Positions 25,801 to 61,220 of a stretch of DNA of 61,220 nucleotides are shown here, piece after piece (the stretch's first letter is position 1; each line of letters starts with the position of its first letter). The position numbers were made by a program, and so were the translations under genes. The DNA lies in NCBI RefSeq assembly GCF_002571385.2, contig NW_019217798.1, positions 1,044,824-1,106,043 of the forward strand, written 5' to 3'. Source of the stretch: Stylophora pistillata. Taxonomy: Eukaryota. Under the pieces are notes generated by a model. It was not told the DNA's origin. It made no database searches and was given only the letters and a program-made list of their open reading frames with translations.

Positions 25801-28800
25801 AATAGGTTGCCGACATCCTTAAGTGTGTCCGGAAGTCGGGCTCAAGTAACGTGTTTTTCTGTGTTGAAGTCGTCAAGTAAACCTTCAAGTTAACGTCAAC
25901 GTTTGTTGTTTTTCTATGTAGACGGAGTCTCAAGGACACCTCATTCAAATCCAGCCTAACTTCAAGGGAGACCTTATCGACAAAGTGCAGATTTTCATCG
26001 AGGATGTCACTTCATTTTCATCAGATTACCAAACGGTAAGGTGTCAATTTCCCAATTGACCTAAAATCAGCTTCAAAATTAGTTGACACTTTTTATGTGT
26101 AGAATAACACTACTGTTTGTGCAATACTCTAAATCATTGAACCAACCCCTCCCCCATTCAGTGTTGCGTGTTTGTAGCTAAAAGATCACAAAATCACAAT
26201 ACAACATTGTTTTGGGATGGAAGGGGACAAATAGGTTAACATAGTTAAGGCAAAAGAGATAAAAAGGAAGTAATAGGAATTTAGAGAGGTCAGTCTGTCA
26301 ACAGTTTTGTCAACGATTGTATTCAATTGCATGTGTTATTTTTCGTTACATGTAAGAATGTATCGCATATTACTTTGTTATAGTAGAGTTGGCGTCGGTA
26401 AACGAGTCAATGAGATTCTTTTCTTGGTAGTCCTAACTTCCTCTCCTCGGCTGCGATTCTTTATATTAACAGCCAAATTAAACAATTACAGGTCTATTTA
26501 ATCCATTTGTTAACTTGTTCACAGTGTCTCCAAGTACCTCGAAGGTGTTTAATACGTTGACCCCTAAATCAAGTTATTTTTTTTTTAACCCTTCTTTTTA
26601 TCTATCAATGCATATAATTATTTATTACTCCTTCTTTTTTCAGACTGGCCCAATGGTTCCAAATGTCCCTCCTCGTGAGGCTAGTGACAGACTGATCATC
26701 TTTCAGGTTAGTGCGCATGCCCTTTGAAACTGCAGCTGGAAATCTTAGCACCTTTTTTTTAACTTTATTTTACTAAGTATTCGCTATTCGTACTTACTTC
26801 CTACCAACCAGGACCCAGTTATGCAAAGGGCAGATGACGCTATCTAGCTGATAAAAGGCTATCCAGCGGATAAGAGATAGCCAACTGCACTGTACTGTCT
26901 TAGCCAGTGGATAGCACTCTCCAGCCTTCGAACAACCGGGGCCTGATGTTTATCCATTCTCACAACTTCATACGATAATTCTCCTTCCCTATTTCAACTA
27001 CGTGCAAAAAATCTCCCTAAAATCAATTGATGCAAAGGATGGTGGTTAACTAGGGTGTGTTACGGAAATCGTGTTTTACAAATATTGCATTAAAAAAAGA
27101 AGGATGAGGAAAATAACCCCTTAATTAGCTGAGTTTACTCTTTACTTCAAGCAGACTGGTCTGAGTCTTTTCCAAGATAATTTTGGTTTTATCCACTGAG
27201 TTTATAAAGTAAATTTTAAATTGTCAGAGCGAATGATGAAGAGCTCTGACAAAGGGCTAACGCTCGAAACGTCAGCTTTGAAATTATTTACATTGGCAAA
27301 TTTAAATTATCAACTCAGTTGATAAAACCAAAATTACCTTGCTACTCCCACTGACACAGCACCACAGTTTCTTTATAAACTCACTCCCTTTATTTCTAAG
27401 TCTTCCCCCAGTTCGACAGTCCATGTAAAGACTCCTAGTGAAGTGAAAGTAGTTTTTTTTTTTTAATATTTTTTCGTTGTTGTTGCAGAATCGATTTGAC
27501 GCGCTATGGCGTAAATACATCACATACTCCGGAGGAGAAGAGCTGTTTGGGCTCGCTGTGACAGAGTACCCAGACCTGATGCAGATCCGCCGAGAACTGA
27601 ATCTTTTGCAAAAGCTCTACGGCTTGTATAATGACGTCATTGACACTGTGAATGGATATTATGATATCCTGTGGGTTGACGTCAATATAGAAAAAATTAA
27701 CGTGGAACTTCAAGACTTTCAGACACGGTAATTCTACGATCAGAATAGCTCGCTGAAACGTTTCACTAATACCTCTGGGAGGGGTAGGCCGGTGTTCCCA
27801 ACAAGAGGGAGGGAGTGCTAAAAAGGGATGTCTGGTTATCTCATTATCCTAAATTATCGTAGAGGAGTAGAATCACAGGCACTCGAGGATCCTGTGCAGG
27901 AAATAGCTTATTAGCAGTGGGGATTTCAAATGAGCAGGATGGTTTTTTTTTTAAAATAAACTGCAATAGCTGACCACACCAGAGGGTTTTGTAGAAAACG
28001 AGCTGGCCTAGACGACGTGACTTAGAGGTGCGCTGAACTAAGAATCTAAAGGTCTGAGTTCGAGCCCCGACAATGGGTTGTTGTGGTGTGTTCTTATTCA
28101 AGACACATAACTCTCACTCTCACAGTGCCTCTCTATCCATTGGCTTACGGTGGAAAAGTTGACGAAATGTTGAGGGTTAATCTGCGATGCAGGTGCATCT
28201 CATCGATATGGTAATACCCAGAGGCACGTAATATTAGCGAAATCATGATAAGCAGGGATAGCAAGGCCCACCTTACTCGTGTGCATATTTCACCTTTACG
28301 GTGACCTGGAATTGCTGGACAGTCTTATTATTGATTGTAAACTCTGCATTTTCCTTCCAACAGATGCCGTAAGCTCCCTCGGGCTTTGAAAGACTGGCAG
28401 GCCTTCCAGGATTTGAAGCAAACCATCGATGACTTCAATGAAAGCTGTCCATTACTGGAACTGATGGCGAACAAAGCCATGAAACAGAGGCACTGGGACA
28501 GAATAGCTGGACTAACAGGACATACATTTGACATGGAGTCAGAAACATTCTCACTGAGAAACATCATGGAGGCACCTCTGCTGAAACACAAAGAGGATAT
28601 TGAGGTGTGAAACTAATGGATTGTGTCATTTTCTCTACTGTTTTCTTATTCTGTGCTTAGTAAACAGGTTACTGTCACGCCCTCAGAGAGGTTTATGGCA
28701 CAGGCTTAAGAAGGCTAAGCAGTCTCAAGCACTAGGTATTTTTCCATAAAGAGTCTTCCTATTTAAACTCTGGAAGGTCAGAGTTTGAACAAGGAATGGA

Positions 28801-61013: not shown

Positions 61014-61217
61014 GAATAAACGTACTAACTAAAAGCACACACAACCCACAATTCCTCTATTCGCTCCGACGAAGGGCTAACGCTCGAAACGTCAGCTTTT
61101 GTAATCGTTACGGTGGCCAATTTACCATTTCAACTTTGTTGATATATCCAAATTATTTCGTTACTCCCACCGACGCAGCCCCAAACAGTTTCTTTCGAAA
61201 CTATCAGCCTTTATTCA
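61014..61217 (+). mobile_element. Hammerhead-bearing dispersed repeat (family HH-A), best-preserved copy
   Basis: GCT CCGACGA A GGGC-TAAC-GCTC GAAA C GTC AGC at 61063-61096, followed by the family tail (...caactttgttgata...cccaccgacgcag...cagtttcttt...ctttattc) shared with the copies at ~1290, 8240, 10840, 23890 and 27180. Bounded by gaataaa...tttattc. Confidence 0.75.
61063..61096 (+). ncRNA. Minimal type I hammerhead ribozyme motif (U4C variant core), predicted cleavage after GUC at 61093
   Basis: Stem I GCU/AGC, core C(C)GACGA, 4-bp stem II GGGC/GCUC, GAAA, and palindromic ACGU in place of stem III, as in minimal hammerheads associated with Penelope-like elements. Confidence 0.6.
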
Positions 61218-61220
61218 TTT

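Follow-up and report, generated by a model that had tools for sequence, protein, structure and literature searches.

Hammerhead-bearing insertions in introns of Stylophora pistillata are probably pLTR fragments of a Neptune/Nematis-type Penelope-like retroelement

What places a hammerhead RNA motif inside the introns of coral genes, and does it matter to the genes that house it? The question is posed by a palindromic insertion near position 27178 in a dynein heavy chain intron of Stylophora pistillata, one of six related loci in the window, by which we mean the whole 61,220-nucleotide stretch of DNA analyzed here. A first-pass annotation had read these loci as a high-copy, non-autonomous palindromic family with minimal hammerhead ribozymes. 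Our reading is that the six loci are truncated, partly inverted pLTR fragments of a Neptune/Nematis-type Penelope-like retroelement (PLE), likely inserted singly by that element's own endonuclease and reverse transcriptase (RT). We put its probability at roughly 85%.

The six loci are homologous: blastn with 27101-27480 as the query recovers them at E values from 6e-28 to 2e-14. Nor does the motif recur by chance. Specifically, the 398-Mb genome holds 556 exact cores with U at position 4 (U4) and 3,551 exact cores with C there (C4), and reversed-pattern controls gave 0. The proposed identity is the right one: the motif is a hammerhead of the minimal type I, its stem III being a palindromic ACGU. 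The U4 subfamilies, through their exact cores, show every part of the minimal type I definition (CUGANGA, an extra nucleotide, a G10.1-C11.1 stem II, GAAA, a palindromic stem III, and UH). Moreover, a PLE-associated hammerhead of Acropora digitifera, printed in the supplement of Cervera and de la Pena 2014 (PMC4209133), agrees with the Stylophora motif in stem I, in the CUGACGA core with its extra A, in stem II (GGGC-UAAC-GCUC), and in the C-G-U-C region of stem III. That paper also describes dispersed single motifs and opposite-strand pairs. The rows available to us from its alignment all have U at position 4, whereas the exact Stylophora cores are mostly C4.

Other parts of the first description needed correction. 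A canonical core is present in 0 of the 6 window copies, a strict CUGANGA...GAAA expression recovered 0 of the 6 loci, and an Rfam scan of the window returned 7 weak hits at E <= 5 with no hammerhead among them. The copy at 61063, earlier called the best preserved, reads CCGACGA (U4C); it lies about 450 nt behind the dynein stop, next to an assembly gap. No window locus carries a full core on both strands, as had been proposed for some, and the tail, said to be always the same, ends near either +90 or +150, counted from core nucleotide C3. The long inverted repeats seen at 27178 and 23890 are genuine (arm pairs 27173-27216/27298-27341 and 23884-23922/24005-24043). At the 10841 locus, the minus-strand motif is decayed (C3 at 10931; G8A, G12C), and CUGANGA is missing from the plus arm. 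At 23890, the plus arm begins near +28/+31 and has no ribozyme. Four loci are indeed intronic, with host genes on the + strand: spliced reads define the intron at 9582-12003, and exon edges define those starting at 7465 and 23846 and that at 26707-27488. Table 1 collects the coordinates.

Table 1. Hammerhead-bearing pLTR fragments in the window and the parts of the insertion in the dynein intron
Position	Strand	Feature	Basis or remark
1290..1379	+	Old solo pLTR fragment, 5'-truncated inside core, short 3' end	17% from old majority
8237..8321	+	Old solo pLTR fragment, U4G, cut site deleted; inside intron starting at 7465	Sequence, exon edge, subfamily comparison
10841..11025	.	Head-to-head insertion in spliced intron 9582-12003	blastn, sequence, spliced reads, subfamily comparison
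23884..24100	.	Head-to-head insertion, decayed minus-strand motif	blastn, inverted-repeat search, sequence
26707..27488	+	Dynein heavy chain intron, insertion host	GT/AG edges
27160..27169	+	Left copy, probable decayed target-site duplication	Matches 27395-27404 at 9 of 10 nt
27173..27216	-	Inverted arm, tail part, pLTR about +97 to +54, short 3' end	89% complementary to 27298-27341
27221..27235	-	Inverted arm, ribozyme 5' edge remnant (-8 to +6), ends at A9	Sequence, 15 nt
27243..27276	+	Minimal type I hammerhead motif, likely inactive	Sequence; equals published Acropora motif save G8
27277..27394	+	Remaining pLTR, tail lengthened by ~60 nt, as far as about +150	Older U4 subfamily, 11% from its majority
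27395..27404	+	Right copy, probable target-site duplication	Same 10-nt pair
61031..61220	+	Young-subfamily pLTR, U4C core (C3 at 61066), tail	0% from young majority, 98 sites

Within the insertion at 27178, the plus-strand motif has stem I at 27243-45/27274-76, the core at 27246-52, the extra A at 27253, stem II (GGGC-UAAC-GCUC) at 27254-65, and GAAA at 27266-69, followed by C-GUC, with a predicted cut after 27273. The G8A lesion reported at 27251 is correct, and it is a CpG transition. From the minus arm at 27221-27235, stem II, GAAA, and the cut site are all deleted. We note that G8A is common to both arms (27221-27235 and 27246-27252), as if the template had already been dead or the arms had been converted. 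The stretch 27173-27341 folds as a single long hairpin (-59.7 kcal/mol). For the candidate target duplication that flanks the insertion, chance pairs attain 10 nt in 3-6% of trials. The exon after the host intron matches Pfam DHC_N2 (E 1.5e-5, below the curated cut-off), and the last exon of the gene matches Dynein_C (E 2e-40); no dynein splice joints were seen in RNA reads, expression being too weak to show them.

The pairing of stems I and II was examined across 15 motifs. Paired positions make up 87.6%, with double changes in 3 of 7 pairs, a score reached by 33 of 500 shuffles and one that includes some columns fixed by the search pattern. Same-length stem II variants number 155 matches in the coral's own genome; the 100 of these listed contain no separate stem II family and look like single-step decay.

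The suspected link to Penelope elements is borne out by one locus in particular. At L049, the same pLTR sequence lies behind a 594-aa open RT + GIY-YIG frame, with 97 nt from the stop codon to C3. The frame matches RVT_1 (E 1.6e-7, above cut-off) and GIY-YIG (E 4.5e-4, just under cut-off). An RT fragment beside one copy, used as a query, gave 150 scored RT matches in the genome, and a pLTR is present in 16 of 20 RT-bearing stretches, the other 4 of which have assembly gaps. At L215 and L216, the order is pLTR, UTR, ATG, and ORF, a partial-tandem layout. The older subfamily, that of the 27178 copy, also runs into an endonuclease (L122, 73% over 85 aa), in a tblastn test in which 2 of 30 loci matched. 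The architecture is pieced together from several loci, and a single gap-free full-length copy was not seen; in the window, tblastn with the PLE protein found nothing. Just 5' of the element's ATG (L215:1500-1572) stand a branch-point-like word, a pyrimidine tract, and CAG, resembling an acceptor, which suggests that the element, like many PLEs, keeps a spliceosomal intron, here in the 5' UTR and with a donor that would lie in the pLTR. No spliced UTR reads occur among the joints shown, at a depth of 0-50. A second, different Penelope-like RT family adjoins one copy (L017:2264-3028 in the oriented locus).

Conserved motifs point to the type of element. The translations contain a CX4CxxC linker (CARARCKTC), a CxxC between GIY and YIG (CTYC), and DKG. 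The linker and CxxC motifs, as defined in Craig et al. 2021 (PMC8557442), place the element with Neptune/Nematis, the two clades taken together. The Neptune/Nematis elements described there likewise have an RT followed by a C-terminal GIY-YIG domain, DKG, a CX2-5CxxC linker, and a CxxC between GIY and YIG that forms part of a CCHH motif. Also shared are 5' truncation, partial tandems, an inverted 5' copy, a one-end tail, and a hammerhead in the pLTR; the tail is about 60 nt in the Stylophora element versus 30-40 bp in Neptune/Nematis. The coral element combines traits of endonuclease-bearing PLEs: a single RT + C-terminal GIY-YIG ORF beside the pLTR, partial tandems, inverted truncated copies, a one-end tail, and target duplications. 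The ribozyme motif, its PLE link, and the inverted, tailed architecture are already in print.

How the fragments may have arisen is suggested by their ends. The young tail pattern occurs 5,471 times in the genome. For the survey, 99 arms were picked by a tail pattern outside the ribozyme, taking the first places among the matches listed, on contigs C1-C3. Their 3' ends are bimodal, with 44 short (near +90) and 55 long (near +150). An inverted arm adjoins 56 of the 99, and in 45 of these 56 a short end is paired with a long one. With one mismatch permitted, a target duplication of 12 nt or more is found around 24 of the 36 inverted insertions and around 6 of the 27 simple ones, compared with 0.3-0.7% of shuffled pairs; the duplications measure 12-19 nt. 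Among the inverted copies we count 39 junction types in 46 entries, three insertions being counted from both arms; the junction seen most often joins the arms through 4 nt of microhomology and recurs in 230 exact copies. Thus, because 12-19-nt duplications flank two-thirds of the inverted insertions, one end is short and the other tailed, and many different junctions exist, the palindromic copies look like single insertions and not like the progeny of a single palindrome that multiplied.

The 5' ends are equally structured. After the 19 arms whose 5' end abuts an assembly gap were dropped, 51 of the remaining 80 begin at -9 to +7, 0 between -10 and -61, and 21 further upstream; the 5'-most end among all 99 arms is at -1064. 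The pile-up at -9 to +7 is also found in 15 of 28 non-inverted arms. The ends therefore gather at the ribozyme's 5' edge, not at its cut site (+28). The candidate reading in which copies start at the cut site, as a sign of cleavage in vivo, was rejected: a start at +23 to +33 is seen in 3 of 80 arms overall and in 1 of the 28 simple ones. In size, the copies span a continuum from stubs of about 60 nt to ORF-bearing copies.

The notion is that the element's protein would nick the two strands at sites about 13 nt from each other, with reverse transcription primed from each of them at one of two internal start sites. Where priming occurs in the upstream pLTR, copying would end after 100-160 nt at the RNA 5' end near -7, giving rise to the mass of solo stubs. 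Two cDNAs may then be joined head to head via the ribozyme's self-complementary words, producing palindromes. The hammerhead, if it acts at all, would do so in dimeric form or helped by protein, with the tandem RNA of the element itself as its substrate, and the intronic stubs would be passengers undergoing neutral decay. In vitro, a PLE of the anole cleaves and extends both target strands, starts reverse transcription at two internal sites, and inserts without needing hammerhead cleavage (Frangieh et al. 2024, PMC11167929). The match between those properties and the ends of the coral copies supports the both-strand, two-start model. The anole element, the Poseidon element PAc, shares with the coral element two 3' ends corresponding to two internal RT starts, AT-rich flanks, and RNA-seq without ends at the hammerhead cut site. 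The two elements differ in that the PAc ORF starts inside the hammerhead, whereas the coral element's ATG is about 225 nt behind C3, and in that the coral protein has a zinc-finger linker, which is missing from Poseidon. The sharp insertion ends in Stylophora (+90, +150, -7, and the 12-19-nt duplications) add in vivo support, from a second PLE clade, for a model whose in vitro demonstration comes from the anole (PMC11167929).

The retrozyme label in the first-pass annotation holds for a small part of the family. Locus L310 (G000:C459, locus 1415-3142) contains five full units and one partial unit of 315 bp, head to tail, each consisting of pLTR, UTR, and a C4 hammerhead, with the start codon absent. 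Locus L311 (G000:C67, locus 1288-2054) has the identical unit junction once, and no other locus matched it. This tandem is a minor derivative; no head-to-tail hammerhead tandem occurs at the window loci or in the 99 sampled arms, so for these the retrozyme assignment lapses. The tandem is in line with the view that retrozymes derive from pLTRs (10.64898/2026.07.22.740005). Like our fragments, non-LTR retrozymes are small, non-coding hammerhead repeats found in corals (Cervera and de la Pena 2020, PMC7229834; 10.64898/2026.07.22.740005). As those sources describe them, however, retrozymes form tandem arrays, with canonical fast hammerheads and circular RNAs in the coral studied, while the window copies are solo or head to head with a minimal hammerhead.

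Alternatives concern how the arms were joined and whether the short copies form a lineage of their own. The same element could have made palindromes when one cDNA folded back and primed itself, or through synthesis on an antisense template, rather than by two-nick priming. Self-priming has been proposed for the head-to-head palindromes of rotifer PLEs (PMC3846280), the motif is strongly self-complementary, and junctions cluster on it. Yet the two arms usually stop at different RT start sites, as the short/long pairing shows, and the whole unit lies inside one target duplication, which fits two priming events; we regard the fold-back route as possible, at odds well short of even. A DNA transposon of the MITE kind, with terminal inverted repeats that mimic a ribozyme, would account for palindromes of ~170-220 bp with target duplications, but it sits poorly with the unequal ends and the many single-arm copies, and continuity of the sequence into the RT-EN frame at L049 and L122 refutes it. 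We give it practically no weight.

More of the data bear on a self-sustaining non-autonomous family, SINE-like or retrozyme-like, in which solo pLTRs beginning at -7 would be transcribed from an internal promoter and mobilized in trans by the PLE protein. An internal promoter is known in D. virilis Penelope (PMC2377424), and such a family would be in keeping with the sharp 5' edge at -7/-9, the single junction in 230 copies, the two tandem loci with a C4 motif in every 315-bp pLTR + UTR unit, and the G8A common to both arms at 27173. Against it stand the diversity of junctions in the inverted entries, 5' ends that are continuous out to -1064, and a C4 allele and tail common to short and ORF-bearing young copies. 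No transcript start appears in the reads: a pile-up of RNA starts at -7 is absent, the element's 5' region having a depth of 0-50 versus about 8,000 for passenger pLTR reads. This absence weighs equally on the RNA 5' end near -7 that the run-off step would require. We consider a self-sustaining family unlikely, and the separate palindromic family originally proposed is not favored, given the stub-to-ORF continuum and the 39 junction types. That one junction recurs in 230 exact copies nonetheless implies that some short forms may propagate.

We return to fragments inserted singly by the PLE machinery and to their fate in introns. The first-pass annotation had raised the hypothesis that ribozymes active in sense introns cleave host pre-mRNA and that selection purges or disables them, with CpG decay as the alternative. 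Core lesions at all four intronic window loci are what selection would produce, and vertebrate retrozymes are reported to be excluded from introns (10.64898/2026.07.22.740005). However, the intergenic copy at 1290 is as decayed as the intronic copies, and the copy at 61063 is simply young. All five decayed copies in the window fall into older subfamilies, lying 11-18% from the nearest old-subfamily majority, whereas 61063 is identical to the young majority. Arms of the young C4 group (66 in all) differ from their subfamily majority by 4.7% on average. The corresponding means are 8.3% in the motif-picked U4 group, from 28 of 30 loci, and 9.8% in the old group, from 24 of 30 after 6 whose 5' parts are rearranged were set aside. 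CpG core sites mutate like CpG non-core sites (24/263 vs 77/726 in young and 11/48 vs 43/216 in old copies; p 0.55 and 0.69), in a comparison that pools sense-intronic copies with other classes. Non-CpG core sites change less than non-core sites (2/462 vs 55/1848 and 10/215 vs 100/857; p 0.0006 and 0.0016). Since the flank figure includes sub-lineage differences, the low core variation speaks for source elements under constraint and not for copies being crippled.

RNA reads tell the same story. The libraries are stranded, as the + strand spliced gene at 9581-12801 shows. Reads from the pLTR are abundant, and 84-86% of them continue into unlike sequence. Sense and antisense reads are about equal (ratios 0.83-1.31), and U4 makes up 11-13% of sense versus 12-15% of antisense reads. 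Neither cut-site ends nor a dip at the cut site appear in the stranded reads, whose starts and ends gather nowhere and in which passenger copies swamp any signal; the sample is expression-weighted, covers 2-6% of three runs, and consists mostly of C4 copies, so weak cleavage could escape notice. Selection against active intronic ribozymes is not supported and seems to us very unlikely, whereas core lesions that follow age and CpG decay fit. The accompanying suggestion of long dsRNA in pre-mRNAs stands in part: host transcripts containing fold-back junctions exist, making long dsRNA in host pre-mRNA possible.

What distinguishes the latest burst is the core letter itself. C4 occurs in 57 of 66 young arms (T in 7, matching the CpG reversion rate), and in 11 of 13 motifs beside RT matches; among RNA reads its share is about 86-89%. 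Metagenome contigs yielded 29 related motifs, 11 of them with C4. All 29 were found with a pattern of 11 spacer letters versus 10 in the motif, so that they represent relatives and indel variants, not the family itself; of 38 matches, 9 unrelated-looking ones were excluded, blastn matched 28 to the pLTR, and 1 was retained on inspection. In a tail-only tree (65 columns), the Stylophora C4 group is nested among U4 rows (98/91 and 100/98), and other C4 rows form two separate groups with weaker support (96/79, 85/91). The tree suggests that C4 arose more than once, and the variant recurs in other lineages.

Modeling offers one view of what C4 could do. In folding predictions, U4 monomers enter a CUGACG/CGUCAG decoy helix, with a stem I pair probability of 0.17; C4 would weaken that helix by about 1 kcal/mol, with a stem I pair probability of 0.82. 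Most young copies carry C4, and weaker self-cutting is predicted for them. C4 is a natural variant with lower activity in vitro that is sufficient for a viroid in vivo (PMC3088659), and the CYGANGA descriptor admits it (PMC13481778). We found no report of a C4 core in PLE hammerheads in the literature searched; Lunse et al. 2017, which lay outside that search, may have C4 variants. The small PLE hammerheads of that study cleave as dimers, according to a review (PMC6765202). We speculate, and hold the idea loosely, that cnidarian PLEs repeatedly swapped U4 for C and that C4 swept the latest burst here. Breaking the decoy might have retuned a dimer- or protein-dependent ribozyme or served a non-cutting role at the RNA 5' end, with stubs and palindromes recording the two RT starts and the RNA 5' end. 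In practical terms, about 86% of this genome's exact young cores would escape CUGANGA descriptors, and censuses built on them may undercount. The natural U4/C4 pair within one family provides a clean test of whether PLE hammerheads need cutting.

The window contains other features that touch on its annotation. The gene with the 46-aa exon at 7327-7464 we take to be UBE2V, a name drawn from its motif and the first-pass annotation; the exon has no Pfam match. Another dispersed repeat family, abundant in RNA reads and presumably SINE-like from its look, lies at 8511-8675, 28086-28137, 42175-42280, and 43719-43856. Three ~110-bp palindromic repeats occupy 12957-13285, in an expressed stretch that follows the final spliced exon (12801), and are the source of weak miRNA-like Rfam matches. 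An unrelated 105-bp hairpin at 45590-45694, with 51-nt arms that are 82% complementary, is probably a MITE-like repeat. At 14709-15188, nested inverted repeats of 45-55 nt surround a ~370-bp core, and RNA reads are absent from the 14640-15303 bin. Tandem arrays with 14-nt and 21-nt units are present at 43579-43732 and 15610-15798, respectively. Finally, 4026-5021 holds a single-exon, 331-aa frame that by eye has the look of a seven-transmembrane receptor.
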